IMG/VR virus record: IMGVR_UViG_3300022391_000001
Coordinates: 41,470 to 105,469 of that record
Length of the DNA: 64,000 nt
Reading direction: 5' to 3' (one strand)
DNA from: a virus
The translations under genes were made by a program, and so were the position numbers. Below, piece after piece: positions 17,844 to 41,487 of this stretch (positions are counted from its first letter, which is position 1; every line of letters starts with the position of its first letter). The notes beneath the pieces are model-generated. The model did not search any database, was not told the origin of the DNA, and saw nothing but the letters and a program-made list of their open reading frames with translations.

Positions 17844-18916
17844 CGCTTGTACAGCTCCTTGTGTATGGCATCCCGCTTCTCGGTGTCCTTTTTCAGCGCC
17901 TTGGCGGCGGCAGGGAGCCCCTGGCCGCCCAATTTCTCGCCCTTGTATTCATAGGCGTTGCCCGCCTTTTTGATGATCCCGTCGGCCACGCCCTGGGCGA
18001 CCAGAGCTTGCTCCTGGTTGATCCCGTGACCATAGTCAATCAGCACTTCCGCCTTGCGAAACGGCGGCGCAATCTGATTCTTCTTGCATTCAACCACAAG
18101 TTTATTGGCCACCTTCTCGCCGTCGGAGTCCTTGTTGGTCGCCACACGCCGGACATCCAGGAGTAGGCTCGCATAGAATTTGGGCGCGTTGCCGCCGGCA
18201 GTCTCGGTGTCATTGCCAAACATCACCATCTTCTTTCGCACCTGGCTGATCCACAGAAGGGCCACATCTTCTTTGGACACCTTGGGCATGAGCTTCGGTA
18301 ACAGCTCCGAGTAGACTCGTGCCTGCGGCGCCATGTGCTTGTCCTCCCACTCGCCCTCATACTGCGCCTTGGTGATGGCCGCGTTCATCGAGTCCAACAC
18401 GATGAGGATTGGGATGCGTTCCCCGCCCTTGCGCAGCTCCGCCGCTCGCTCGATGACCCCTTCACACGTCGCAAACACCGACTCCAAGTGCGGCGGCTGG
18501 GCTAGCACCAATTGATCAATGTTCACCCCGATGGCCCGAGCGTAGTCAGGGTCCAGCTTGTACTCTTTGTCGATGTAGACTGCCACCCCTCCGAGCCGCT
18601 GCGTCTCAGCGACGATGTGCAGCGCAAGCGTGGTCTTGCCGGAGCCCTCCATGCCGTGGAGCAGCGTGAGACGGGAGCGTGGGATGCCGCCGCGTCCAAT
18701 GGCCGCGTCGATGGTCGCGCACTGTGTGGAGATGACGCCCCGGATCTTGATGGCTAGCCCATCGCTCCCGAGCAACATGGCGCTATCGTCGCCCAGCTTG
18801 GAGCGTATGCTATCCAGCACCCCGGTGGCGAAGTCTAGCTTGATGGCCGCTTCGCCGCCGGGTGCTTCTGGAGTCGCCACCGCCACCTGCTTCTTGGTGG
18901 CAGTCTTCTTTGGCAT
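17819..18916 (-). CDS. recA: RecA recombinase
   Basis: GGIPR, GMEGSGKTT, QAR, ISQVR, GGNAPKFYAS, KNQIAPPFR. Confidence 0.95.
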   Translation of the reverse strand: MPKKTATKKQVAVATPEAPGGEAAIKLDFATGVLDSIRSKLGDDSAMLLGSDGLAIKIRGVISTQCATIDAAIGRGGIPRSRLTLLHGMEGSGKTTLALHIVAETQRLGGVAVYIDKEYKLDPDYARAIGVNIDQLVLAQPPHLESVFATCEGVIERAAELRKGGERIPILIVLDSMNAAITKAQYEGEWEDKHMAPQARVYSELLPKLMPKVSKEDVALLWISQVRKKMVMFGNDTETAGGNAPKFYASLLLDVRRVATNKDSDGEKVANKLVVECKKNQIAPPFRKAEVLIDYGHGINQEQALVAQGVADGIIKKAGNAYEYKGEKLGGQGLPAAAKALKKDTEKRDAIHKELYKRWQSGTAP

Positions 18917-20109
18917 CAGCCCTTCTTGCCGCCCTTCTTGCCGCCCTTGGCCTTAGTTTTGGCCTTGTCCTTGCCTTTGCCGCCGGAGATCCGATCCAAC
19001 TCGGCATCCAGCGCGTCCAGCCCCAAGTCGTCATCGTCCTGTTTCTTGGTCTTGGACACCACAACTTTCTTGCCCTGCTTCGGCGGCTTCACAGGCTCGG
19101 GCTCCGGCTCATCATCATCGTCGCCTTCATCGTCGCCTTCATCGTCGGCGTCGTCGTCGGCGTCGTCACCTTCATCGTCGTCGGCGTCGTCATCGTCGGC
19201 GTCGTCGGCGTCGTCATCGTCGGCGTCGTCATCGTCGGCGTCGTCGTCATCGTCGGCGTCGTTCTCATCGTCGTCATCGTCGGCGTCGTCGTTCTCATCG
19301 TCGTCGCCGTTCTCATCGTCGTCGTCACCAAAGGCATCATCGTCGGCGTCATCTAGCTTCACGCCAGAGATCATCGCCTGGATATCCTGTGGAGTCTTGA
19401 CCATGTTGGCGACCAGCTTAAACAGGTCGCAATCGCCATTCTCAGCCATCGCCTTCAGGATCTTCTTGCGCAGCTCCTTGGACAACTTCACAGGCTTCTT
19501 GAGGCTTTCGGTGTCAGCCTGGACCTTGTATTTGGTGTCATTCTTTCCGCGCCCTTCGCGGCTGATTCTGGCCAATATCGCGGCGTCTGGATCAGTGATG
19601 TCGCCGTTGTCAAAGAACAGCTCCATCAACCCCTCATACACCGTCTTGCCGCACATGAGCACGGCTGGTTTCTCCGGCAATTTCTGCCACGGCTCCGACT
19701 TGGCGCGACGATGCTTCAACGGCGTGACGCCCCACAGAAAACGAGACTGTGGACGAGCGTTGTCTGCCTCTTCATCGCTCAATTGACCCGTCCGAAGTGC
19801 TTCAGCCATCGGACACTCCGACGGGAGCTTGAAGCCCTTTTTCTTGCGCAAAAATGCCTTGACAAATGGATGCTTGATCACCGGGTTGGCGTCGGTGTCC
19901 AATGATACCACCATCCCGTTGTTCTTGCCCACCCCGAAGTGGACGGTGACGGGCACATAGTTGAGCCCGGCTGTGGGCGGGTGCTCATCGTCATCCCTAC
20001 AGGGAGGATGGATGTACACCAAAGTGTCCCCCTCGGGCGGAGCCCAGAAGTCCCCGCCGCGCTGCTGCGCCTCATAGCCCTTGCGCATACGCCCCATATC
20101 AACGGCCAT
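18916..20109 (-). CDS. putative single-stranded DNA-binding protein (gp32-like) with long acidic tract
   Basis: Next to recA; GDITDPD..I.ISREG.G..DTKYKV pattern; long Asp-rich C-terminal region. Confidence 0.7.
   Translation of the reverse strand: MAVDMGRMRKGYEAQQRGGDFWAPPEGDTLVYIHPPCRDDDEHPPTAGLNYVPVTVHFGVGKNNGMVVSLDTDANPVIKHPFVKAFLRKKKGFKLPSECPMAEALRTGQLSDEEADNARPQSRFLWGVTPLKHRRAKSEPWQKLPEKPAVLMCGKTVYEGLMELFFDNGDITDPDAAILARISREGRGKNDTKYKVQADTESLKKPVKLSKELRKKILKAMAENGDCDLFKLVANMVKTPQDIQAMISGVKLDDADDDAFGDDDDENGDDDENDDADDDDDENDADDDDDADDDDADDDDADDADDDDADDDEGDDADDDADDEGDDEGDDDDEPEPEPVKPPKQGKKVVVSKTKKQDDDDLGLDALDAELDRISGGKGKDKAKTKAKGGKKGGKKG
19110..19352. repeat. low-complexity GAC/GAT repeat encoding an Asp-rich tract
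   Basis: Imperfect tandem gtcgtcatcgtcggc units. Confidence 0.9.
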
Positions 20110-20158
20110 CACTCACTCTCCTTGAACTGGTGCTGATGTATTCAATCGTCCCGCAGCG

Positions 20159-20672: not shown

Positions 20673-21176
20673 TCAGCTCGCTTTCTTGACACCGCCAGAC
20701 GCTTTGCGCGGGCCACCCTTCGCCTTTGGCGCCGCTTTGGCTGCCTTGCTGACTTCCTTGGCTGCCTTTGCAGGCTCGGACTTGGGTTGTACCTCGGACT
20801 TCACCTCCGCCGGCTCAGTCTTATTGGGCTTCTTGCCCTTTGGTTTCTTGGTTCCAGACTTCTTGGCCTTTGGCTTCTCGGGTGCTTCAATCGGTAGCTT
20901 GGCATTCAGCCACTGCTTGGCACTCGCGTGTGCGGAGAAATTGAGCACCCACTTGTCACCGTAGGTGATAGAGCCACCCTCCAGGACTGGCGACGTGATC
21001 GTGCGGCCCTTCATGAGCTTGCGCTTGAACGTCCCAAACTTGTGGACTCGCAATTCAGTGCTCTTGGTCAGCAACTCCAACATGACTTCGAACGTCTTTT
21101 GAATTTGATCCTTGTGGACGCCAACCGCCTTGGCGATATCCGACACGCCCAAAATGACCTTTGTATCGTCTGACAT
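20673..21176 (-). CDS. HU/IHF-like DNA-binding protein with Lys/Ala-rich tail
   Basis: LRVHKFGTFKRK...RTITSP...LNFSA. Confidence 0.75.
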   Translation of the reverse strand: MSDDTKVILGVSDIAKAVGVHKDQIQKTFEVMLELLTKSTELRVHKFGTFKRKLMKGRTITSPVLEGGSITYGDKWVLNFSAHASAKQWLNAKLPIEAPEKPKAKKSGTKKPKGKKPNKTEPAEVKSEVQPKSEPAKAAKEVSKAAKAAPKAKGGPRKASGGVKKAS

Positions 21177-21206: not shown

Positions 21207-24200
21207 TTATGCAGCCCGCGCATGTTTGGCTGACTTTTTCAGGAGCTTGATCGCACCGTTGTTCAAGAAATATTGCCAACTTTTCCTGTCTTTCTTGCGA
21301 TCTAGCTGAATTCGGAGATGATTGCCCGCCTTGATGTGCTTCTTGGCACTCGCGTCCCATGCCGACGCAAAGCAGATCACATCGATGTAGTTGCCAATCC
21401 CGTCGATGATGCCAAAAAAGGCCATTTCATTGCTGTTCTTGTCGTACTTCAACCGCACATGGGTAATGACCCCGGTGAACCAACTGCTCAACCCGAGTTC
21501 AAAGAGCTGATTGGTGATCGCGCTGGCGCGAAGCGTCGTGACCACTTCGCCCTCCGCGCCCTTGTATTTGATCTGCTTGTCGGCCCAAGGGTAGGACACC
21601 GACGGGTGCTGGCCTGCTATGATGCGCTCCCAGACAGTCAGCGGTGCCCCCTCGTTCACCTTCTTGCGGTACACTTCCAGATCCAATAGGAAATGGGCGC
21701 GCAAATTCTCATACCGCGCATTGGCCGACGCGTGAACCACCACCGGGGTCCCAACGCCCGCGTCAACCACCTCACGGAAGTCATCAAAGATGTCAAAGTC
21801 AACCTTGATCCGGTTCTGCTTCCCGCCGACATCCTCCACGTTGACATTCGCATACCTCGCTCCCCAGAACATGTCCCGCCGCTCTTCAGCAGACGGAAGC
21901 TCCCCTGTGTGAAAGTCCCCCACCTGGTTGTACTTCACCTCCACAACAACGCCGACGATGAACACTCCGGCTCCGTCGTTGTTCACCCAAAAGTCTTCAT
22001 CGCTCATGGCGGCGATTGGAACCTTGATGTTCTTGGAGATGAAGTCCCCGTATGCATCAACTGGATGCTTCCCAAAGGCCAGAGGGTTGACCTGGGACGC
22101 GATCAACTGCCGCTCTTCATCGGCATAGTCGGGCTCCGCCGCCCATTGCTTCAGAAGCTCCCGAAGCCCCTCCTTGTCCTTCTTGTTGTACACCTTCCAG
22201 AAGTCTTCAATGCCCTCGATGAACTGCTTGATATTGGGCAACATCTCATCGAGCGCTCCCGCGCGGGCCAGCGCCAAGACCACGCCCTTGTGACACTTGC
22301 GCCGGTCCACGCGGGCAAGGAAGTCAAACAGCCCCTTGTAAGGTTGATTCTCCATGATCGTTGTCGCCGCCGCTTCACCAACACCCTTGATGTCAACCAA
22401 ACTCCCCCGGATGGCCCTGCGTCCCGAGTCAATTGCAAACTGCTTCTTGGACATCGACACAGAGGGTGGCAGCAGCTCGATGTCGTGGCGCTTGACATCC
22501 TTTGCGATCTGCTGGATGCGGAGCCGCTGCGGCTCGTTCTTGAGCAGCGCCCAGTAGAATTCAAGCGGATACTTCCGCTTGAGCCACATCCCCCAATAGG
22601 CGATAACTGCATAACATACAGCGTGAGAGCGGTTGAATCCATAGCTGTTGTGTGATTGAAAATATTGAGGATTTGCACCTTTGGAACAGACCAAATAGTT
22701 GGCTAATTCACCACCGTGCTCACACTCGATGTCCCACATCGACTCCACGCCGATATCTCGGACTTCAACCACAACGGCGGAGCTTCCCAACGCCAACATC
22801 CTCACGCCCGGATACAGATCATTGGCTTTCATCCACCCTTTGTCGGTATTCCACCAATGATCTGGAGAGCAAGCAAGAGTCTGGCCGCCTGTGAGCTTGA
22901 TGTCGAATTGCCGACGCACGCCCGTCCTAGCAACCGTCTTGACTCTGTTTTCGGTTGGCCGCCCCTCGGAATCCAAGGACACGATTGAATCGCCTGGCTT
23001 CAAGTCGCTGATTGCTTTCGTTTCAGCCTGTAACTCCGAGAATAATGCATCGAACACATGTTCTTGCTGTATGTGACTCTGCCGCACCCCAAATAAATGC
23101 ATATCGGCTCTTGCCGTTTTGAGCCCTTCAGATGATAGGATGTGTGCGGCCCTCGTGCTGTTATCTCCAGATTGTCCAGAGTGTTGTTCGTCGTGTCGCC
23201 GTCGATATGATGCACCATCTCTCTGGACAACAGCTTCCGACCAATCATCTTTTCCATGGCCACTCTGTGCTCCAGCTCCCAGCCATTCTCCGTCTTGATC
23301 GTCAAGTAACCATTCTGCTTCCCCTTGTCGCCAATTTTCTTCTTGCAAGTTGGCGCGCCGCGCTCCGTTGTCAACTCTAAATTGTCGATGTCGTTGTTCA
23401 TCGGATCGCCGTCCTTGTGGATCACTTGCTCCCGATTTGTCAACCGCCGGCCTATCTTCTGCTCCATGAGCCATCGATGCTCTCTCACCCATCCCCTCTT
23501 TGTCTTCACATCCATGTATTTGCCGTCGCGTCGGCGGCTCCCTATTGGCTTGGCTTTCGGCATCCTCTTGACTCCCGTTGTCGTTTCGTTTAGCTTCTAA
23601 CGAAACGACAACGCAAGAACAAGAGGGCAAACAACCAAAAAAAGTTATCGCGTCCATCACCCGCCCAGCGGTCTTGGCGTCCATACCGCAAGTTGCCTTC
23701 GCGCCCTCGATGAAATTTTGACGCTCCTTGCCAATAGTCTCGTCGCCCCACTTCTTTGCGATCTTTTTCCTGAGTGAGTCAGCGGTGGCCGGAGGGAACC
23801 CGGCGACCTGTGTGAAAATCTTCAGCACATGCTCCTGGTACACGATGATCCCGAGGGTGTCCTTGGTGATCTCATCTACCAACGGGTGGCCAAAGGCTGA
23901 CTTCTTGATCAGCTTCGGGTCCTTTTTGCGCGCCACGTACTGGGTGGCCAAGCCCGAGCGTGCGGTGCCCGGTCGATTCAGCGCTGTCATCGCAGCGATG
24001 TCTTCAAAGTTGTTGAACTCAACGCCTGAGCAAATCTTGTCGGCGCCCGGGGAATCGTATTGGAAGATCCCCACATAGTCATGGTCTGTGAACCCCTGGA
24101 GCACATCAGGCTCGTTGAGGTCCAACTTCTCCAAGTCGATGTCCACCCCGTGCCGCTCCTTGATCGCCTTCACGCAGTCGTTCAACACGGTCAGAGTCCG

Positions 24201-26078
24201 GAGCCCGAGCACATCGAGTTTAAGCAGCCCCATCGCCGCCACGCCATACATGTCGATGGCGCTGACCACGACATCCTTGCCCTCGTGCTTCCGGATCTCC
24301 AATGGAACCAGATCCGTGAGCGGCACCGGTGATGTAATCACCCCGGCGGCGTGTATGCCGAGGGTCTTGGCCATCCCCTCCAGCCGCTTGGCGTGACGGA
24401 GCACGTCTGGATACTTCGCGTTGAATTCCTGACACACCTTGAATTCAGCGAAGCTGTCCTCAATGGTCTGGCTGGCCCGCTCATCGCCGCTGCTCCGCTC
24501 GATGATCGAAGCGGTGACCGCGTTCACCTCGGCATAGGGCACGTCCAGGACTCGGGACACATCCTTCAGGCACTGCTTCCCTGACAGTTTACCCACTGTC
24601 GCGATCTGACACACCTTGTCGGCGCCATACTTCTCACGCAAGTGGTCGATGATCTCCTGGCGACGCACATCCTCAAAGTCCATGTCGATGTCGGGCATGT
24701 CGATACGACTGGGTGAGATGAACCGCTCAAAGATCAACCCGTGCTCGATGGGGTCCACGGAGGTGATGCCCAGCAGGAATGAGACGATTGAACCGGCGGC
24801 GGAGCCCCGCCCTGGCCCGCAGGCGATGTTCTGGCGTCGCACCCAATCATACAAGTCTCGGACCAGCAGGAAGTAACCGATGAACCTCTGCCGCTTGAGC
24901 GCCCCCAATTCCATCTTCAGACGGTCCCGGTAGATGGCGACGGCTTGGGCCGGCGGCATCTTCATCCGGCGGGCATAGGCGGCTGCCCGGCTCGGGATAT
25001 CCCGCCAGCTCCAACCTCCGATGCACAGCTCTTTCAGGTACTGATACTGCTGTGCATCTGTGGCGTCATATCCGCCATATTCACTCGGGAGCCGAAGCGC
25101 CGGCATCAAGCACGCGAAGCGGTCGATGTTGATGATCTTCGGCTCGATCATGCTATTGAACAGCAGAGTGTTGTCCAATGCCTCCTTGATGACCTTGTCA
25201 GACATGAATTCATGGTTATCTTGGAAGGCTGTCTTCATCTCCGCCCGAGTCCGGAGGTGAAACTCATTGTTGCCGAAGCGGAACCTGTCTGGGTTGGACA
25301 TCCTGTCCCCGGTCCCGATACAGAGCATCACCTCGTGGGCGTCGGCATCCTTCTGGTCGACATAGTGGGCGTCTTGCGTCGCCAACAGGCGTGCGTGCTT
25401 GCCCCAACGCTCCCGGAGATCCAATGCGAATTGGTTGGCCAACCGTTGATCGTCGATGGCGTGCGGTTGCACCTCCAGCCAGAGGTCTTCACCGAAGCGC
25501 TCCCGCAGCTTCTCGGCGTCGGCCAATGCCATCCGCTTCTTGCCCGTCGCAACCCGGTCGTTGATCGGCGATGACAAGCAACCGGTGGCAACCGCCAATC
25601 CGTCGCCGTGTTCCATCAGCGCCTTGAGGTCGATGCGCGGCTTGTAGTAGAATCCCTCTGTCCAGCCCATCGTGGACAGCCGATACAAGTTGCGGAGCCC
25701 TTCGGCGTTCTTGGCCCAGACGGTGATGTGCCACCGGTCCCGGATCCCCCAGTGCTCCTCATACCCCTTGACGGCGTTCTTGGCGTCGGCGCGATTCATC
25801 CCCTGGGTGATCTCCGCCCGCTCTTCAGGCGTGATCCCCTTGCGATGCATGTCCATCGCGACATAGAATTCAATCCCGTATATGGGCTTGACGCCGTGCT
25901 CCTGGCACTCCAACAGCTGCTGGTAATATCCGCGCATCGTGCCGTGGTCGGTGATCGCGATGGCTGGCGCTCCGCGCTCCTTGGTCGCCTTGACATAGTC
26001 GGCGACCTTGCCGCAACCGTCCAATTGGCTCATATCCGCGTGTACGTGCAAGTGGACAAAGTCTTCAGCCTTTGACAC
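21207..26078 (-). CDS. dnaE: DNA polymerase III alpha subunit, intein-containing
   Basis: PHP HLHVH and ITDHG, GRGSAAGS, MPDIDMDF, LLKLDVLGL, YQE, YGFNRSHA. Confidence 0.96.
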   Translation of the reverse strand: MSKAEDFVHLHVHADMSQLDGCGKVADYVKATKERGAPAIAITDHGTMRGYYQQLLECQEHGVKPIYGIEFYVAMDMHRKGITPEERAEITQGMNRADAKNAVKGYEEHWGIRDRWHITVWAKNAEGLRNLYRLSTMGWTEGFYYKPRIDLKALMEHGDGLAVATGCLSSPINDRVATGKKRMALADAEKLRERFGEDLWLEVQPHAIDDQRLANQFALDLRERWGKHARLLATQDAHYVDQKDADAHEVMLCIGTGDRMSNPDRFRFGNNEFHLRTRAEMKTAFQDNHEFMSDKVIKEALDNTLLFNSMIEPKIINIDRFACLMPALRLPSEYGGYDATDAQQYQYLKELCIGGWSWRDIPSRAAAYARRMKMPPAQAVAIYRDRLKMELGALKRQRFIGYFLLVRDLYDWVRRQNIACGPGRGSAAGSIVSFLLGITSVDPIEHGLIFERFISPSRIDMPDIDMDFEDVRRQEIIDHLREKYGADKVCQIATVGKLSGKQCLKDVSRVLDVPYAEVNAVTASIIERSSGDERASQTIEDSFAEFKVCQEFNAKYPDVLRHAKRLEGMAKTLGIHAAGVITSPVPLTDLVPLEIRKHEGKDVVVSAIDMYGVAAMGLLKLDVLGLRTLTVLNDCVKAIKERHGVDIDLEKLDLNEPDVLQGFTDHDYVGIFQYDSPGADKICSGVEFNNFEDIAAMTALNRPGTARSGLATQYVARKKDPKLIKKSAFGHPLVDEITKDTLGIIVYQEHVLKIFTQVAGFPPATADSLRKKIAKKWGDETIGKERQNFIEGAKATCGMDAKTAGRVMDAITFFGCLPSCSCVVVSLEAKRNDNGSQEDAESQANREPPTRRQIHGCEDKEGMGERASMAHGAEDRPAVDKSGASDPQGRRSDEQRHRQFRVDNGARRANLQEENWRQGEAEWLLDDQDGEWLGAGAQSGHGKDDWSEAVVQRDGASYRRRHDEQHSGQSGDNSTRAAHILSSEGLKTARADMHLFGVRQSHIQQEHVFDALFSELQAETKAISDLKPGDSIVSLDSEGRPTENRVKTVARTGVRRQFDIKLTGGQTLACSPDHWWNTDKGWMKANDLYPGVRMLALGSSAVVVEVRDIGVESMWDIECEHGGELANYLVCSKGANPQYFQSHNSYGFNRSHAVCYAVIAYWGMWLKRKYPLEFYWALLKNEPQRLRIQQIAKDVKRHDIELLPPSVSMSKKQFAIDSGRRAIRGSLVDIKGVGEAAATTIMENQPYKGLFDFLARVDRRKCHKGVVLALARAGALDEMLPNIKQFIEGIEDFWKVYNKKDKEGLRELLKQWAAEPDYADEERQLIASQVNPLAFGKHPVDAYGDFISKNIKVPIAAMSDEDFWVNNDGAGVFIVGVVVEVKYNQVGDFHTGELPSAEERRDMFWGARYANVNVEDVGGKQNRIKVDFDIFDDFREVVDAGVGTPVVVHASANARYENLRAHFLLDLEVYRKKVNEGAPLTVWERIIAGQHPSVSYPWADKQIKYKGAEGEVVTTLRASAITNQLFELGLSSWFTGVITHVRLKYDKNSNEMAFFGIIDGIGNYIDVICFASAWDASAKKHIKAGNHLRIQLDRKKDRKSWQYFLNNGAIKLLKKSAKHARAA
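23000..23563 (-). CDS. double-HNH homing endonuclease in the +1 frame inside the intein
   Basis: Two repeats: EHRWLME..VIHKDGDPMNNDIDNL and EHRVAME..VHHIDGDTTNNTLDNL; C-terminal C..GC...CSMHY; GGAG RBS 8 nt upstream. Confidence 0.9.
   Translation of the reverse strand: MPKAKPIGSRRRDGKYMDVKTKRGWVREHRWLMEQKIGRRLTNREQVIHKDGDPMNNDIDNLELTTERGAPTCKKKIGDKGKQNGYLTIKTENGWELEHRVAMEKMIGRKLLSREMVHHIDGDTTNNTLDNLEITARGPHTSYHLKGSKRQEPICIYLGCGRVTYSKNMCSMHYSRSYRLKRKQSAT
23576..23613. promoter_or_regulatory. perfect 15-bp inverted repeat abutting the HNH RBS
   Basis: cgttgtcgtttcgtt-tagcttct-aacgaaacgacaacg. Confidence 0.75.
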
Positions 26079-26128: not shown

Positions 26129-26716
26129 TTATTCGCCCAACCTTGATAGGACTGCGCGCGCCGCGTCGCCTTTGACCACGTTGGTGGTTGTGATATGGCA
26201 CTTTGGAACCGTGATGGAGCGCTCGAACATCAGCGTGAACAGCCGGTCCAGTGTTCTCCAATCGGCCTGCGATGGGAACCACCTCCCCTCGCAGCGCCGC
26301 TTACAAACGTCATAGGCGGCGGTCATCCAAACGTACAGCACATCGCCGCCCTGCTGTGTCATCAGCTCCTGCCAGAATCCCACCAATTTGCGGCTCGCAG
26401 ACAGGTCCTTGTAGTAACCATCCAGATGGTTGTGAAGCACACCATAGGCGACAGCGGAGGGCAGCGAGCGGTCCAATATGACGTTTGCTCGGAGGGTGCC
26501 TAGCAGGTCTGCCGTGAAAAGATCCTCGATGTGGCAGTTCAGAGGTATCCGGAAGTCATCCCTGAGCACTCGCTCCGCGTCGCCCTCGTGCCCCCAATGC
26601 AGATCGGAGTTGCCCCGCCTGAACGGCCGATACACCGGCCATTCAAGCCACTGCGACAGCTCCTGGGCACAAGATGACTTGCCAGTCCCGTTGAGCCCCT
26701 CCAATATGATGATCAC
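26129..26716 (-). CDS. dNMP kinase-like P-loop protein
   Basis: IIILEGLNGTGKS, ILDRS; GTGA overlap with the aminotransferase. Confidence 0.8.
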   Translation of the reverse strand: MIIILEGLNGTGKSSCAQELSQWLEWPVYRPFRRGNSDLHWGHEGDAERVLRDDFRIPLNCHIEDLFTADLLGTLRANVILDRSLPSAVAYGVLHNHLDGYYKDLSASRKLVGFWQELMTQQGGDVLYVWMTAAYDVCKRRCEGRWFPSQADWRTLDRLFTLMFERSITVPKCHITTTNVVKGDAARAVLSRLGE

Positions 26717-27990
26717 AGAGCCAACCCCTTGTGAACAGCATCCACCGCTGCCAATGCCCAAGCCAGATCATTCTCCGGGATGGTCAGCGGCGGTGTGAAT
26801 CGGATAGGCCCGAATTGCCGATGCGTGGCAAACAACAATCCGACTTCCCGCGCCCGATGGATGAACTGAAAACCGTCATATCCATAGGTGTGAAAGTCGG
26901 GCGTGAAGGCGTTGAGCATCCCGAAACCATCGACGCTGGCCACCCAATCATAGCCACCCAACACCGTCCGGATCATCTCCCCCCGTTTACGCACCATCGG
27001 CAAATTGGCATCCAACCATCTGAACATCTCCGCTGCCATGTGACAGACAAAGGGCGAGCCCCCGAAGGTGTTGAAGTGGACTCCTGGAGTGAACGCCTTG
27101 GCGACATCCTCCGACGCCAGCATACAGCTCATCGGGAAACCCATGGCCAAGCCCTTGGCCAGCGTCATGATGTCGGGCTTGACTCTGATCTTCGGGTGCT
27201 GCCACGTGGCGTGATAGCCCGCGCGTCCCGAGCCCGCTTGCACATCGTCATAGATGAGCAGGAAACTGTGCTGCTTGCGTATCCTGGCCAACTCTTGCCA
27301 GAATGCAGGCGGATATGTGTGCACAGTGTTGTTGCCCAAGACGGGTGCGAGAATGACGGCGGCGACTGTGTCCCAATCTGGCGCCTTGGGCTCGTGCTCG
27401 GCGCCGTCTGTAACCACCTGTTGGAGCACCAACTCATCTTCACGCCATCTAGGGTCCAGGACTCCGAAGCCAGCAGCGATGGGCCCAAACCCGTGGCGGT
27501 GATATGGACTGACTCGGAAGTCCCCGGCGGCGAGACTCAGACCGGTGCGCCCATGGAAGTTGCCTTCCATCGTCAAGATGCGGCGCCGCTCTTCATGCCC
27601 CCGGTCCCACCAATACTTGCGCGCAATCTTGATGGCTGCCTCGTTGGCTTCAGTCCCGCTGTTGGAAAAGAAGATCCTGTCCATCTCCGTGCGCTGGCAA
27701 ATCAGCTCCGCCGCTTCCCAGCGCGTTGGATTGGGATAGATGTCAGGGAGCTGGTGCGGAGCCCCGGTGCCAAAGAATTTGAACACCGCCTGAAGAACCT
27801 CCGGCGTGTTGTAGCCCAGCGCGCAGACACCCTCATCCCCCCAGAAATCCAAAAGGCGTTGTTGCTTCTCAACATCCTTGACGGCACTTCCGGCTGCCGA
27901 TTCAACCGTTATCGGCAGCCGTACCACGTTGTTCATCAGACGGCCGTTGTACTTCTCGGTGTTGACCGTCGTGTCCTCATTCTGGTTCAT
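26713..27990 (-). CDS. class III PLP-dependent aminotransferase (ArgD-like, divergent)
   Basis: FSNSGTEANEAAIK, FHGRT, DDVQAGSGR, DIMTLAKG, NTFGG, RFTPPL. Confidence 0.92.
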   Translation of the reverse strand: MNQNEDTTVNTEKYNGRLMNNVVRLPITVESAAGSAVKDVEKQQRLLDFWGDEGVCALGYNTPEVLQAVFKFFGTGAPHQLPDIYPNPTRWEAAELICQRTEMDRIFFSNSGTEANEAAIKIARKYWWDRGHEERRRILTMEGNFHGRTGLSLAAGDFRVSPYHRHGFGPIAAGFGVLDPRWREDELVLQQVVTDGAEHEPKAPDWDTVAAVILAPVLGNNTVHTYPPAFWQELARIRKQHSFLLIYDDVQAGSGRAGYHATWQHPKIRVKPDIMTLAKGLAMGFPMSCMLASEDVAKAFTPGVHFNTFGGSPFVCHMAAEMFRWLDANLPMVRKRGEMIRTVLGGYDWVASVDGFGMLNAFTPDFHTYGYDGFQFIHRAREVGLLFATHRQFGPIRFTPPLTIPENDLAWALAAVDAVHKGLAL

Positions 27991-28946
27991 CGGCCATCCT
28001 TTCTGGTGCCTGTCCAAGGATCCCTGCCCCAGAAGCGTTCATATTGCGTCGCACGCTCCATCATCTCCGCCTTCATCGGCACGTCCACGTTGCCCAATGC
28101 CAAGGGCAAGGGCTCCGTCGTCCATTCGCGGTTGAGATGGAGCGGACACGGTGGCAGCTTGTCGTCCCCGGTCAACCGGCGGCGGCATTCTTCTTTGTAC
28201 ACGCATCCCATGAAGTCATCTCCCGACATGCACGGCGGTGAGACCATCTCCCGGAATATGGGGTGAATCTTCTCGGCGCACTCGTTGATCATCCCCTCGA
28301 TGATGGGCCCCCAAATTCCAAGCTGCAAAATCCAACATCCCCGCTTGCCCACGATGTGCTGCAGCGCTGAGATGTTCAGCTTCCAGCTGATCCGGTGTTG
28401 CGCCCCCAACGGTATCAGCTCCCGAGCATCCTCCATCGGTATCCCTGCCGCCACCAGCGCGTTGTATCCCGCCTGAATCCGCTCCATTGTCGCCCTGTAC
28501 AAGTCAATGAGCGTGCTATCCGGATGTTGCTGAATTGTCAAGGGCAGCCGGTATGCCTCATTGGTGGCAAAGCTCCCCATGTCCTGGATGCGCATCGACT
28601 GAGACCACCATGAACTCTTGGCCAAATCAGGTATCTCATCCATCACTATGTCGGCGCCCACTCGCTCCGGCGAAGGGAGCGTGCCGATCCGATGGCGCAC
28701 CGCCTGCTCCCGCCAAGATACAGAGACACCCTCCAGCATGAACACGAGGTCCACGTGCTCGCCGATCGGGATGCGCTGGGCTATCACCGCCCTGAAGAGC
28801 TTTTCAATCTCTTCAGGGGCCACGTCCCGCTTGATCTCCGCCGGAGTCCGAAGCGGCTCCTCAGTCTTGCTGGCCTCCCACACGCTGTACACCAGCTCCA
28901 AAGGGTCCCGAGTCCAGGTCAGCAGGGTCACTTCCGGTTCATTCAT
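27987..28946 (-). CDS. ThyX-family flavin-dependent thymidylate synthase-like protein (divergent)
   Basis: EH, QAVRHR, SQSMR, EDARELIP, KRGC. Confidence 0.8.
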   Translation of the reverse strand: MNEPEVTLLTWTRDPLELVYSVWEASKTEEPLRTPAEIKRDVAPEEIEKLFRAVIAQRIPIGEHVDLVFMLEGVSVSWREQAVRHRIGTLPSPERVGADIVMDEIPDLAKSSWWSQSMRIQDMGSFATNEAYRLPLTIQQHPDSTLIDLYRATMERIQAGYNALVAAGIPMEDARELIPLGAQHRISWKLNISALQHIVGKRGCWILQLGIWGPIIEGMINECAEKIHPIFREMVSPPCMSGDDFMGCVYKEECRRRLTGDDKLPPCPLHLNREWTTEPLPLALGNVDVPMKAEMMERATQYERFWGRDPWTGTRKDGR

Positions 28947-40102: not shown

Positions 40103-41487
40103 GCTTCTCGCTCCTGCTCCGCTTCAGCGATGTACATGCGCGTGAACTCCGCTTCCAACGGGAATGTGATGTCACCTTTGCCGTCCCGGTATTTGGCCAG
40201 ATACAGCTCCATGTGCTTTGTGTCGGGCTTCAGCGGTCCCTCCGTCGGCGCTGCCTCTTCACCGTCGTCATCGTCTATGGACACCCGCGTTGAGCGGGTG
40301 CGCTTCTCGGGCGTGTTCAGGGTTATGACCAGGTCAGCGATGCGCGCCTTGTCGTAGGACTCGGCGGTTGCCTCTGCCTTGGCGATCTTGTCCTTCCACT
40401 CCTTGCCCGCCTGCGTGGAAGTCCACACACCGTAGCCCTCGCCAGCGAGCCCGGCGATGTCCCAGTACACCTCCGCCTGCTGGAGCCTATGTGACTCAAA
40501 CCGCCCCACGCCGCGCATGTGATCGGCGGAGTCCAAGATGATCACCTTGGGGTGAAAGTCGTGCTCCGTCCGCAGATCATCCAACGCGGCGCGCACGGTG
40601 TTGATATCACACCGGCGAAGCGGCATCTCAACGATATGGAGCAACCCCTCAAACTGCTTCAGCGCCTTGCCCTGCTTTGCCTCCAGCTGGCGAAGCTCCG
40701 AAGGTTTGAAGTCATATTCCTTGAACTTCTTGTATTCCATACGTGACCAGCGGGAGTCCATCCGCTGAGCAATCTGGAACAAAGGCATCTCAAGGCTGAA
40801 ATACACCGTGGGATAGCCCCGGGCGATGGCGTTGTAGGTGAGGTTGCTCAGGACGATGGACTTGCCCACGCCCGTCGTTGCGACCACCAGACCTAGCTCG
40901 CACAGCTCCAGCCCTCCACTCAGGATCCGGTCCAGTCGCTTGAACCCGGTTGGGATGCGTGTCCACTCTTCAGGGTGCTCCCGGCGACGCTTCCGCTCCA
41001 TCTGCCGGTGCTGAAAGTCCGAGATCCACTCAATGCTGTTGTAGTCCCGTGGCTTGAGCTCCCGGTCCACCGCCGACCGCAACGCCTTGTACACATCATC
41101 CACTTGGCCCTTCTCCAGCGACCTTGCCGCTGCTTCCATGGCCAGTTGGGCGTTGACCGTGCGGACAAACTCCGAGAGTTGATCCAGCGATGCCAAAGCC
41201 GCCTTGGGCTGGCGCCGAATGAGCTTGCGCACCAACTCCAGGTGAACCGCTCGCTCCCCATCCTCACGGAAGTCCACCCGCGCCCGAGCGATCAAGTGCG
41301 CGGCGGTGGTCTGCTCCCGGTATTTGGTCCAGATCTCATAGATCCCCTTCCACACCCATGCGTGCTGCGGAGTGTTGAAATGGTGCTCCGCCACCAACCG
41401 CGCTGCCCGTTTCAAATAGTCTTTGTCACGCAGCGCGCGACAAAGGATGTCCTCTTCAAACTCCTGATCCAGAATCAGGTTTGTCAT
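40099..41487 (-). CDS. dnaB: replicative DNA helicase (DnaB family)
   Basis: IPTGF..LD, ATTGVGKS, SLEM, ILDSAD, TQ, AKYRDG. Confidence 0.9.
   Translation of the reverse strand: MTNLILDQEFEEDILCRALRDKDYLKRAARLVAEHHFNTPQHAWVWKGIYEIWTKYREQTTAAHLIARARVDFREDGERAVHLELVRKLIRRQPKAALASLDQLSEFVRTVNAQLAMEAAARSLEKGQVDDVYKALRSAVDRELKPRDYNSIEWISDFQHRQMERKRRREHPEEWTRIPTGFKRLDRILSGGLELCELGLVVATTGVGKSIVLSNLTYNAIARGYPTVYFSLEMPLFQIAQRMDSRWSRMEYKKFKEYDFKPSELRQLEAKQGKALKQFEGLLHIVEMPLRRCDINTVRAALDDLRTEHDFHPKVIILDSADHMRGVGRFESHRLQQAEVYWDIAGLAGEGYGVWTSTQAGKEWKDKIAKAEATAESYDKARIADLVITLNTPEKRTRSTRVSIDDDDGEEAAPTEGPLKPDTKHMELYLAKYRDGKGDITFPLEAEFTRMYIAEAEQEREA

Follow-up and report, generated by a model that had tools for sequence, protein, structure and literature searches.

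A candidate cis-splicing DnaE intein in a metagenome-derived phage genome, with a tandem HNH endonuclease gene in an overlapping reading frame

The DNA polymerase III alpha gene (dnaE) in the window analysed here (the whole stretch of 64,000 nucleotides, positions 41,470 to 105,469 of IMG/VR record IMGVR_UViG_3300022391_000001) is the only polymerase gene of the phage and carries an insert, probably a class-1 intein that splices in cis and whose homing nuclease is encoded by a separate, overlapping gene (Table 1). According to the proposed mechanism, ribosomes on dnaE would first translate block A (11 residues), then pass through ~190 HNH codons out of register, which would yield a hydrophilic, unstructured linker, and finally translate the remaining Hint domain; the Hint fold would close around the linker, and the 329-residue insert would be spliced out via Cys1, the block-B His, the terminal His-Asn and Ser+1, restoring the finger motif FFG-SYGFNRSH. 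The tandem HNH_3 nuclease would be translated separately, starting at an AUG of its own within the dnaE mRNA; it would presumably nick or cut the intein-less dnaE alleles of co-infecting phages, and repair would copy in the intein together with its gene.

Table 1. Positions of the predicted features in the window (position 1 is the first letter of the window)
Feature	Positions	Strand	Description or basis
dnaE (Pol III alpha)	21207..26078	(-)	single ORF, 1623 aa; Pfam PHP, DNA_pol3_alpha, finger and HHH_6 domains
Candidate class-1 intein	22647..23633	(-)	329 aa, Cys1 to His-Asn, then Ser+1; insertion at FFG|SYGFN
Block A, first Hint strands	23601..23633	(-)	CLPSCSCVVVS; mean pLDDT ~80, modelled as strand
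Linker in dnaE frame, same DNA as HNH gene	23028..23600	(-)	~190 aa; stop avoidance, pLDDT, composition
Rest of Hint domain	22647..23027	(-)	KAISDLKPGD onward; weak Pfam hits, remote homologues, AF2 and VIA-align
Block B	22857-22868	(-)	S-P-D-H, within the distal Hint part
Block G	22647-22655	(-)	SHN, C-terminal end of the intein
HNH endonuclease gene	23000..23563	(-)	187 aa, +1 frame relative to dnaE; two HNH_3 repeats and Cys/His tail
HNH_3 repeat 1	23360..23479	(-)	motif IH-K-D-G-D...NN...NLEL
HNH_3 repeat 2	23165..23269	(-)	complete motif HH-I-D-G-D...NN...NLEI...H
Cys/His tail	23039..23107	(-)	sequence motif C-x4-C...C-x2-H-Y
RNA stem-loop	23549..23639	(-)	perfect 15-bp stem, 23599-23613 with 23576-23590, lengthened where block-A codons pair with the RBS/AUG of the HNH gene
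SD-like sequences of HNH gene	23564..23576	(-)	GGGAG, then AAGAGG; both base-paired in the hairpin
U7 run	23637..23643	(-)	ACU UUU UUU GG; shaped like a -1 slippery site; strong stem 8 nt downstream

The intein and its host polymerase

The 329-residue intein of the original prediction was recovered in an uninterrupted dnaE frame, and its limits could be set by comparison with nine related phage contigs whose intein-less alleles run contiguously through the site (...ITFFG-SYGFNKSH), which fixes both junctions and Ser+1. All class-1 splicing residues are present: Cys1, S256-P-D-H259 in block B, W-D301-I-E in block F, and S-H-N329 before the Ser. Block A aligns with the block A (CLTGDT/CIPGES) of 11 other inteins at the same site; a degenerate second block A (FDALFSELQAET, resembling FGCLTGETLIKT) was rejected as an artefact of mis-set flanks, since with proper flanks the real block A aligns. 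The Pfam profiles PT-HINT, Hint and Intein_splicing match weakly, below threshold, and a HMMER search of 1.8 billion proteins with the distal Hint part returned remote Hint domains only (27-43% identity, best E 1e-14), with no close relative among them. The interval between block B (SPDH) and block F (WDIECE), where an in-frame endonuclease would be located, spans ~40 residues and is of mini-intein size; the canonical endonuclease position is empty, as predicted.

In the AlphaFold (AF2) model, block A is docked onto the distal Hint residues to give an intein fold, and the overlapped stretch of ~180 residues (model residues 35-212) is disordered, with pLDDT below 50. In a comparison of the model against 48,161 PDB representatives, inteins or Hint domains made up all of the top 32 matches, among them the atypically split VidaL and Cat inteins; the best match reached Z 10.0 with an rmsd of 1.7 Å over 79 residues, the alignments covered model residues 21-350, and the model Cys1 was aligned to chain residue 1 of solved inteins. 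As modelled, a complete Hint fold forms with no contribution from the overlapped stretch.

Searches of the complete 105-kb phage genome found dnaE as its sole DNA polymerase gene, in a single copy, and no PolA or PolB genes; having no second polymerase, the phage has to get rid of the insert, which makes splicing a necessity. This requirement, together with the intact splicing residues, suggests that the insert is removed by cis protein splicing. The GC content of the intein (0.47-0.53) lies below that of the exteins (0.56-0.59). Alternatively, the insert could stay unspliced as a tolerated loop in DnaE, as proposed for the ShiLan insertion in phage methylases, where an out-of-frame HNH gene within an unspliced in-frame insertion has been documented (PMC11855218); yet the dnaE insert, unlike ShiLan, combines a full Hint fold with the whole set of class-1 splicing residues, and it breaks up an invariant finger motif (FFG-SYGFNKSH) in the phage's sole polymerase, so that this alternative appears highly improbable.

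The overlapping HNH gene and the open dnaE frame

The HNH gene occupies intein nucleotides 70-634, between block A and the second strand. The 187-residue +1-frame ORF with two HNH repeats that the original prediction had described is borne out by the profile search proposed along with it: HNH_3 (PF13392) matched well above its cut-off (E 2.2e-19, 69.2 bits against 24.8) in two stretches, and the separate matches scored 40.4 bits for repeat 1 and 34.1 bits for repeat 2. Aligned with one another, the repeats share 54% identity. Repeat 1, in which the HH pair has Ile in place of its first His, is probably degenerate; repeat 2 retains the invariant residues H99, H118, H119, N127 and N131 in an alignment with relatives, and is modelled by AF2 with pLDDT values of 88-96. 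A Foldseek search with the HNH model found I-HmuI (1u3e) as the best match, albeit a weak one (E 0.46, TM 0.27, 69 columns), and a sequence search of the PDB with the HNH protein gave no match. The Cys/His tail is likely to be a zinc-binding motif; the same C..GLC..HY..YR motif occurs at the N-terminus of the HNH genes of the L002 type (a related phage contig, see below) and of a free-standing HNH gene (L042). The TGA of the HNH gene spans the Leu-Lys codons of KAISDLK, within the codons where it had been predicted, and the ORF is intact over 187 codons, compared with 14 stops in the third frame.

Read in the dnaE frame, the same DNA gives a linker in which 73% of the residues are polar, Gly or Pro; this composition and the low pLDDT agree with the low-information, hydrophilic stretch of ~190 residues described earlier. 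The linker is free of stops in a manner that is difficult to attribute to chance. Codons of the HNH gene that start with AA, AG or GA are at risk, in that they can complete an off-frame stop; a T-ending codon precedes none of the 61 at-risk HNH codons, against 26 of 126 elsewhere (Fisher p 1.4e-5), and with the genome-wide rate of T at the third position before at-risk codons (14.7%) the zero in the window has a probability P of ~6e-5. Among 20,000 synonymous permutations of the HNH gene, none kept the dnaE frame open, and the mean was 7.5 stops. The codon statistics indicate that the dnaE frame across the HNH gene is kept open by selection, and the linker is stop-free yet otherwise unconstrained. 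Additional selection for a hydrophilic linker was inconsistent, being marginal in the window (0.02), significant in the related cassette of contig L083, and not significant in four others; for the most part, the linker is hydrophilic simply because HNH codons are read there in a shifted register.

As the source genome is a metagenome-assembled contig, one may ask whether the HNH region is in truth an in-frame intein domain, displaced by two compensating indel errors in assembly or sequencing. This explanation is barely plausible: an in-frame HNH domain predicts ~7 stops in the present dnaE-frame reading, where there are none; stop avoidance codon by codon cannot arise from indels; and the same design recurs in six independent contigs from different samples.

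An out-of-frame HNH gene was found in five other phage dnaE intein sequences (six contigs) at the same insertion site, and the stop-avoidance signature was present in L002, L006, L010, L079 and L083 as well (p 5e-3 to 5e-12). Conservation per frame was measured on L002, L006 and L010, which carry a different HNH from that of the window; among these three, the HNH frame is 40-51% identical and the dnaE frame 22-29%, equal to the unused frame, and positions 1 and 2 of the HNH codons are better conserved than position 3. Because the intein and the HNH gene of the window have no close relatives, we infer purifying selection on this HNH gene from the integrity of its ORF and the conservation of its motifs.

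Of 15 close relatives, 9 have no insert at the site, and such sporadic occupancy is the pattern expected of a homing element. A related phage (L112) carries a nuclease-less mini-intein at the same dnaE site, and free-standing, single-repeat HNH relatives with ~50% identity occur in other phages. The original suggestion that a free-standing type of HNH gene is nested out of frame in a mini-intein gains support from these two observations, as well as from the selection for an open frame and from the Hint fold. Searches for the element itself gave no match when the DNA of the region was compared with 50,697 phage records, or when viral contigs were scanned with the intein peptide; an HNH protein search of 5.8 billion proteins returned partial matches only, and a metagenome scan with the HNH protein recovered only free-standing or TerL-nested relatives, with at most 54% identity over substantial matches. 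The DNA pattern of the C-terminal junction was found zero times in 185,579 prokaryote genomes; that of the N-terminal junction had 46 matches in viral contigs, which added the L112 mini-intein as the only further dnaE intein.

The RNA hairpin and expression of the nuclease

A scan for sigma-70 promoters and terminators around the cassette found no coding-strand site; with no promoter-like site near the cassette, the HNH gene is probably read from the dnaE mRNA. The gene's own ribosome-binding site, given as GGAG in the original prediction, is approximately as described: a GGGAG is found 11 nt upstream of the ATG, and a second SD-like sequence, AAGAGG, directly adjoins the ATG. Both are part of an RNA stem-loop that RNAfold predicts at -47.3 kcal/mol (z = -6.3; none of 200 shuffles folded as well), and repeat folding gave z = -6.5. 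The block-A codons double as the 5' arm of this hairpin. When each of the other five out-of-frame HNH cassettes was folded, a comparable structure was missing. Since the predicted stem pairs the RBS and AUG of the HNH gene with block-A codons, initiation is probably rare, and it may need dnaE ribosomes to open the stem.

To judge from the folded sequence, the buried start may mean that the nuclease is made rarely or not at all, and the second of these possibilities leads to a different interpretation: the HNH ORF would be a silent or decaying relic, untranslated or inactive, in an intein that splices, keeps its host frame open, and is inherited only vertically. The sequestration of RBS and AUG in a very stable stem, the suboptimal SD spacing, the loss of one catalytic-motif His from repeat 1, and the lack of close relatives that would document a recent spread of this exact element are all in accordance with a relic. 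However, an ORF of 187 intact codons next to a third frame with 14 stops, a Pfam score far over threshold with both repeats, and the retention of every invariant family residue in repeat 2 argue against decay; moreover, hairpins that sequester the RBS are a normal form of control in active phage homing-endonuclease genes (PMC2677866, section 14). On balance, a relic is unlikely, and a functional nuclease gene with restrained expression remains the preferred reading.

The hairpin also has to be considered together with the U7 run that precedes it, which is one of just two A/T homopolymers of at least 7 nt in the genome. A -1 slip or drop-off at U UUU UUU, 8 nt upstream of the strong stem, could functionally split the gene; the C-terminal piece would then start at an internal AUG, for which an in-frame ATG (MHLFGV...) is available 37 codons before the Hint domain resumes, and the two pieces would be joined by trans-splicing as in fractured genes, where hairpins before the nuclease gene are known (PMC2677866). 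A programmed -1 frameshift is judged unlikely because the -1 frame ends 17 codons on, at a UAA in the hairpin loop, and removes block A, which leaves no usable N-intein piece. The strong selection against stops across the 187 overlapped codons, which five relatives share, has an explanation only where ribosomes have to cross the cassette in the dnaE frame, and T6 runs at the same Phe-Phe codons are also present in relatives without the hairpin. Taken as a whole, a functionally split gene is very unlikely, and the contiguous, cis-splicing intein is retained as the explanation for the window.

Comparison with known systems and implications

The original prediction had cautioned that out-of-frame HNH genes may have precedent, and indeed both out-of-frame HNH insertions (PMC11855218) and out-of-frame intein endonucleases (bioRxiv 10.1101/2025.01.02.630785) have already been published; out-of-frame intein endonucleases are a known kind since 2025. 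Gosselin, Arsenault and Gogarten described non-canonical inteins of actinobacteriophages in which the homing endonuclease has a reading frame of its own; they proposed that these originate when a free-standing endonuclease gene invades an intein, and noted that annotation pipelines miss such ORFs (bioRxiv 10.1101/2025.01.02.630785). These inteins resemble that of the window in their contiguous intein frame, in an endonuclease ORF on the same strand in another frame, and in an in-frame translation of the overlapped stretch that lacks recognisable structure. They differ in that an endonuclease VII-like gene lies in frame 3 of the usual endonuclease region, in actinophage proteins, whereas the window has a tandem HNH_3 gene in frame +1, in DnaE, after block A and not between blocks B and F, with an RBS-sequestering hairpin; stop avoidance has also been quantified for the window. 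New here are the position of the gene after block A, at the engineered S1 split site and not at the canonical endonuclease site; the tandem HNH_3 nuclease; DnaE as the host; and a hairpin of -47 kcal/mol, formed in part by block-A codons, that buries the HNH start.

In fractured genes, split inteins flank a free-standing endonuclease gene (Dassa et al., 2009; PMC2677866), and a hairpin is found just upstream of the nuclease start at 15 of 16 loci (PMC2677866). They share with the window a same-strand nuclease gene of free-standing type inside an intein, a hairpin upstream of its start, a nuclease 3' end that overlaps the downstream intein coding sequence, and DnaE among their hosts; yet their host ORF is broken, with a stop after the N-intein and a new start before the C-intein, whereas the host frame of the window runs through the nuclease gene. 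By analogy, the window element resembles a fractured gene in unbroken form, either as its counterpart or as its precursor; a fractured version of the dnaE intein was not seen among the N-junction pattern matches in viral contigs. Hidden HNH insertions of the ShiLan type, known from the DNA methylases of phages (Arsenault et al., 2025; PMC11855218), likewise place an out-of-frame HNH gene within a host ORF without internal stops; they have no detectable splicing domain and are thought to remain as a loop, in contrast to the complete Hint domain around the cassette in the window.

The predicted intein is interrupted ~11-14 residues from its N-terminus, which corresponds to the engineered S1 split site (N-intein of 10-12 aa). 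S1-type split inteins with a very short N-fragment have been engineered from Ssp DnaB, Ssp DnaX and Ter ThyX (PMC3620165); they are physically split, whereas the parts of the window intein are joined by a disordered ~190-residue linker that doubles as a gene. Natural atypically split inteins with a very short N-fragment, which are physically split as well, include VidaL and AceL (PDB 6vgw, 6zgq). As a caveat, a break at the S1 position was tolerated by just 4 of 14 engineered inteins (PMC3620165), which counts against our best explanation. Canonical inteins whose HNH lies in frame occupy the same DnaE site in six contigs (L075, L077, L081, L082, L084, L085) and share with the window the site FG|C...HN|SYGFN, class-1 chemistry and a nuclease of the HNH superfamily; there, the HNH forms part of the intein polypeptide, as a domain between blocks B and F, whereas the window has it as a gene of its own that differs in both frame and site.

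The cassettes are found in two slots, after block A (window, L079, L086) and at the canonical position (L002, L006, L010, L083). One HNH family occurs in both, at the canonical position in the latter four and after block A in L079 and L086; the L079/L086 HNH is unrelated to that of the window although the slot is common, and the ORFs of the window and L079 terminate at one and the same pair of Hint-domain codons, those for Leu-Lys. One family in two slots, and two unrelated families in one slot that end on the same codon pair, lead us to suggest, tentatively and with considerable doubt, that the nuclease cassette and not the intein is the mobile unit, in the sense that HNH genes with a stop-free alternate frame move between inteins and between positions within an intein. 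If the cassette is mobile, the slot after block A would provide a natural contiguous precursor of atypically split inteins with very short N-fragments, and would be an exception to the rule that intein endonuclease domains are all found at one conserved site (PMC6801210).

A natural intein that, as modelled, tolerates a 190-residue disordered insert at S1 could also serve as a guide to conditional or peptide-complemented inteins. As the HNH gene will be passed over by gene callers, the homing nucleases of phage genomes are under-counted. One stage predicted by models of intein evolution is a mini-intein invaded by a free-standing nuclease gene that has neither broken it nor turned into an in-frame domain; the window element would be a clear, statistically supported example of this intermediate stage, in which the invasion has taken place at the loop after the first strands, where interruption is known only from engineered and rare natural atypically split inteins.

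The dnaE intein and its open reading frame

The virus record is complete (105,469 bp, direct terminal repeats, 58.6% GC), and searches of this genome found one copy of DnaE and no family A or family B polymerase. The insert in this DnaE is absent from 9 of 15 related dnaE genes in IMG/VR (N-terminal parts 32-71% identical); these read ...ITFFG-SYGFNKSH, which fixes both intein junctions and assigns the +1 Ser to the extein. Within the insert, CLPSCSCVVVS aligns under block A (CLTGDTIIY, CIPGESLVLVV) of 11 further inteins that occupy this dnaE site; blocks F and G are also matched there, and block B is covered by a pairwise local alignment with the intein of L079, another viral contig (37% identity, 115 residues). 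Profile searches of both frames gave weak Pfam Hint-family matches in the distal part of the insert and HNH_3 in the +1 ORF (E 2.2e-19, over two stretches). Searched exhaustively, 1.84 billion representative proteins yielded nothing but remote Hint domains, and no close relative of exactly this element is present in the collections searched. When the insert was modelled with AlphaFold2 together with 20 flanking residues on each side, pLDDT was ~80 for block A, 56-88 for the distal 135 residues, and below 50 for model residues 35-212; the top 32 matches among 48,161 PDB representatives were inteins or Hint domains (Z up to 10.0), with Cys1 (model residue 21) aligned to residue 1 of solved inteins and the disordered stretch skipped. 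Based on the block alignments, the model and the structural matches, the insert is a mini-intein, presumably splicing, whose first strands are set apart from the remainder by ~190 residues. This agrees with the original prediction of an open 329-aa intein frame in which the Hint domain resumes ~190 aa after block A; the stretch from block B (S-P-D-H) to block F (W-D-I-E), where an endonuclease usually sits and which was said to be empty, is indeed short.

With the HNH gene in the +1 frame, every HNH codon starting with AA, AG or GA creates a dnaE-frame stop if it follows a T-ending codon. T-ending codons precede none of the 61 such codons, compared to 26 of the 126 other codons of the ORF (Fisher p 1.4e-5); since T-ending codons precede such codons at a rate of 14.7% genome-wide, a general dinucleotide bias is excluded as the cause. 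The dnaE frame stayed open in 0 of 20,000 synonymous permutations (mean 7.5 stops), and the third frame has 14 stops; the open dnaE frame is not a product of chance. An assembly artefact was considered originally; assembly indels cannot produce avoidance codon by codon.

Features of the dnaE region and inteins at the same dnaE site of other viral contigs
Feature	Position	Strand	Description
dnaE ORF	21207-26078	minus	1623 aa, single ORF; PHP, DNA_pol3_alpha, finger, HHH_6 domains (Pfam)
Intein insert	22647-23633 (DnaE residues 816-1144)	minus	Cys-Leu start, Ser-His-Asn end, then Ser
HNH ORF	23000-23563	minus	+1 frame relative to dnaE; 187 codons; Pfam HNH_3
Hairpin stem	23599-23613 with 23576-23590	minus	perfect 15 bp
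U7 run	23637-23643	minus	ACU UUU UUU GG, -1 slippery heptamer form; 8 nt upstream of strong stem
Aminotransferase	26713-28017	minus	class III (Pfam E 2e-67)
P-loop protein	26129-26761	minus	GxxGxGKS; no Pfam match
398-aa protein	18916-20112	minus	no Pfam match; Asp/Glu-rich tail of ~110 residues, then Lys-rich end
Histone-like protein	20673-21176		Bac_DNA_binding; Lys/Ala-rich tail
L002, L006, L010, L083	dnaE FFG/S site		classic HNH gene, +1 frame, canonical site between blocks B and F
L079, L086	dnaE FFG/S site		identical inteins, different contigs; HNH family of L002 group, +1 frame, start at intein nt 40-43, immediately behind block A, like the window gene
L075, L077, L081, L082, L084, L085, L087	dnaE FFG/S site		in-frame HNH at canonical site
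L112	dnaE FFG/S site		mini-intein without nuclease

The aminotransferase and P-loop genes lie directly upstream of dnaE, an arrangement reminiscent of phage DNA base-hypermodification clusters. Outside the window, the sole other HNH-superfamily match of the genome (PF01844, 32 bits, G000:C1:33220-33330) sits in a small, apparently free-standing open frame of 116 aa.

The HNH gene and its expression

A second search also gave two separate HNH matches, and the two repeats are 54% identical; together with a Cys/His tail similar to a motif found in other phage HNH genes (C..GLC..HY..YR), the 187-aa protein has the composition originally described. Repeat 2 retains every residue invariant among 17 relatives (pLDDT 88-96 in the model), and repeat 1 has Ile-His in place of the family His-His. 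Among known structures, the HNH model comes closest to I-HmuI, a nicking endonuclease of phage, although the match is weak. The nearest relatives are free-standing single-repeat genes on other phage contigs (~50% identity over the core); among more distant HNH_3 relatives, some lie out of frame within large ORFs. In these (L031:2167-5751, L033:2956-5739, L059:2154-4697, L060:1167-4748), ORFs of 205-231 aa that encode HNH_3 plus a zinc ribbon occupy another frame inside ORFs of at least 847-1194 aa, so that the two-frame layout recurs in further host genes (possibly terminase); the L031 host ORF starts like an intein (CVDEETEILT).

From 23650 to 23540 the RNA (111 nt) has a predicted folding energy of -47.3 kcal/mol (z = -6.3); its extended stem pairs block-A codons with the Shine-Dalgarno sequences and AUG of the HNH gene. 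Each of the other five out-of-frame cassettes has a plausible Shine-Dalgarno sequence, but none has a comparable hairpin. No promoter-like site was found near the cassette. Phage homing-endonuclease genes are known to be controlled by hairpins that hide ribosome-binding sites; in fractured genes, 15 of the 16 nuclease genes have such a hairpin upstream (PMC2677866). The predicted fold suggests that translation of the HNH gene from the dnaE mRNA may be infrequent, possibly occurring when the stem is opened by a dnaE ribosome.

Besides the U7 run, the 105-kb genome contains just one other A/T homopolymer of at least 7. Ribosomes slipping by -1 at the U7 run would stop 17 codons on, at a UAA in the hairpin loop, and yield a truncated DnaE. 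At this position relatives carry T6 or less, and they lack the hairpin.

The slot after block A and allele states at the dnaE site

The intein is interrupted ~11-14 residues from its start, a position coinciding with the engineered S1 split site, where splitting leaves an N-intein of 10-12 aa and worked for 4 of the 14 inteins examined (PMC3620165). The window and L079 inteins share a block A of the type C-[IL]-P-x-x-S-x-V-x-V; identity is 37% between the two Hint domains and 68-79% between the exteins, and the cassettes belong to unrelated HNH families. Both HNH ORFs nevertheless terminate at one shared Leu-Lys codon pair within the conserved motif (D/T)-L-K-(P/V)-G-D; in the window, the stop falls inside the KAISDLK codons, as had been noticed. 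Beyer et al. place all intein endonuclease domains at one conserved site and discuss reasons for the absence of others (PMC6801210); the window nuclease is a gene, not a domain, and the intein carries a disordered linker at the odd site.

Relatives were found by a DNA pattern for the C-terminal junction (HN/SYGFN[KR]SH), which gave 13 viral loci that were pooled with the first dnaE set. In the five out-of-frame relatives, T-ending codons before stop-prone HNH codons number 0/50, 0/76, 0/44, 0/57 and 0/62 (p from 5e-3 to 5e-12). Avoidance is strongest in the AT-rich intein L083:1193-2083 (36% GC; 0/62 vs. 46/106, p 5e-12), whose linker is more hydrophilic than synonymous shuffles predict. Among L002, L006 and L010, identity is 40-51% for the HNH-frame proteins and only 22-29% for the dnaE-frame readings of the same DNA, no better than for the unused frame; conservation is higher at HNH codon positions 1 and 2 than at position 3. 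These per-frame identities and codon-position patterns show that selection acts on the nuclease sequence, and on the other frame only for the absence of stops.

A second intein with an in-frame HNH lies 7 residues downstream (GFNK/...SHN/SHATAYG) in L112:1979-4299 and L007:6001-10662. Its first residue, Thr (TVGRSAM / TLWENSY), is unusual; in L112 it directly follows the FFG/S mini-intein, possibly with a third insert further on.

Precedent for out-of-frame HNH genes in phage insertions, anticipated in the original prediction, exists. An endonuclease VII-like gene out of frame in contiguous actinophage inteins was reported in 2025, with the same invasion model proposed (bioRxiv 10.1101/2025.01.02.630785), phage methylases carry an out-of-frame HNH in an unspliced insertion (PMC11855218), and the fractured genes (PMC2677866) represent a broken version of the window layout; the out-of-frame-nuclease intein is therefore already known as a kind. 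The present case differs from the known ones in having a tandem HNH_3 nuclease placed behind block A, a host site in DnaE at which a full series of allele states is seen, and a hairpin between block A and the HNH ribosome-binding site.
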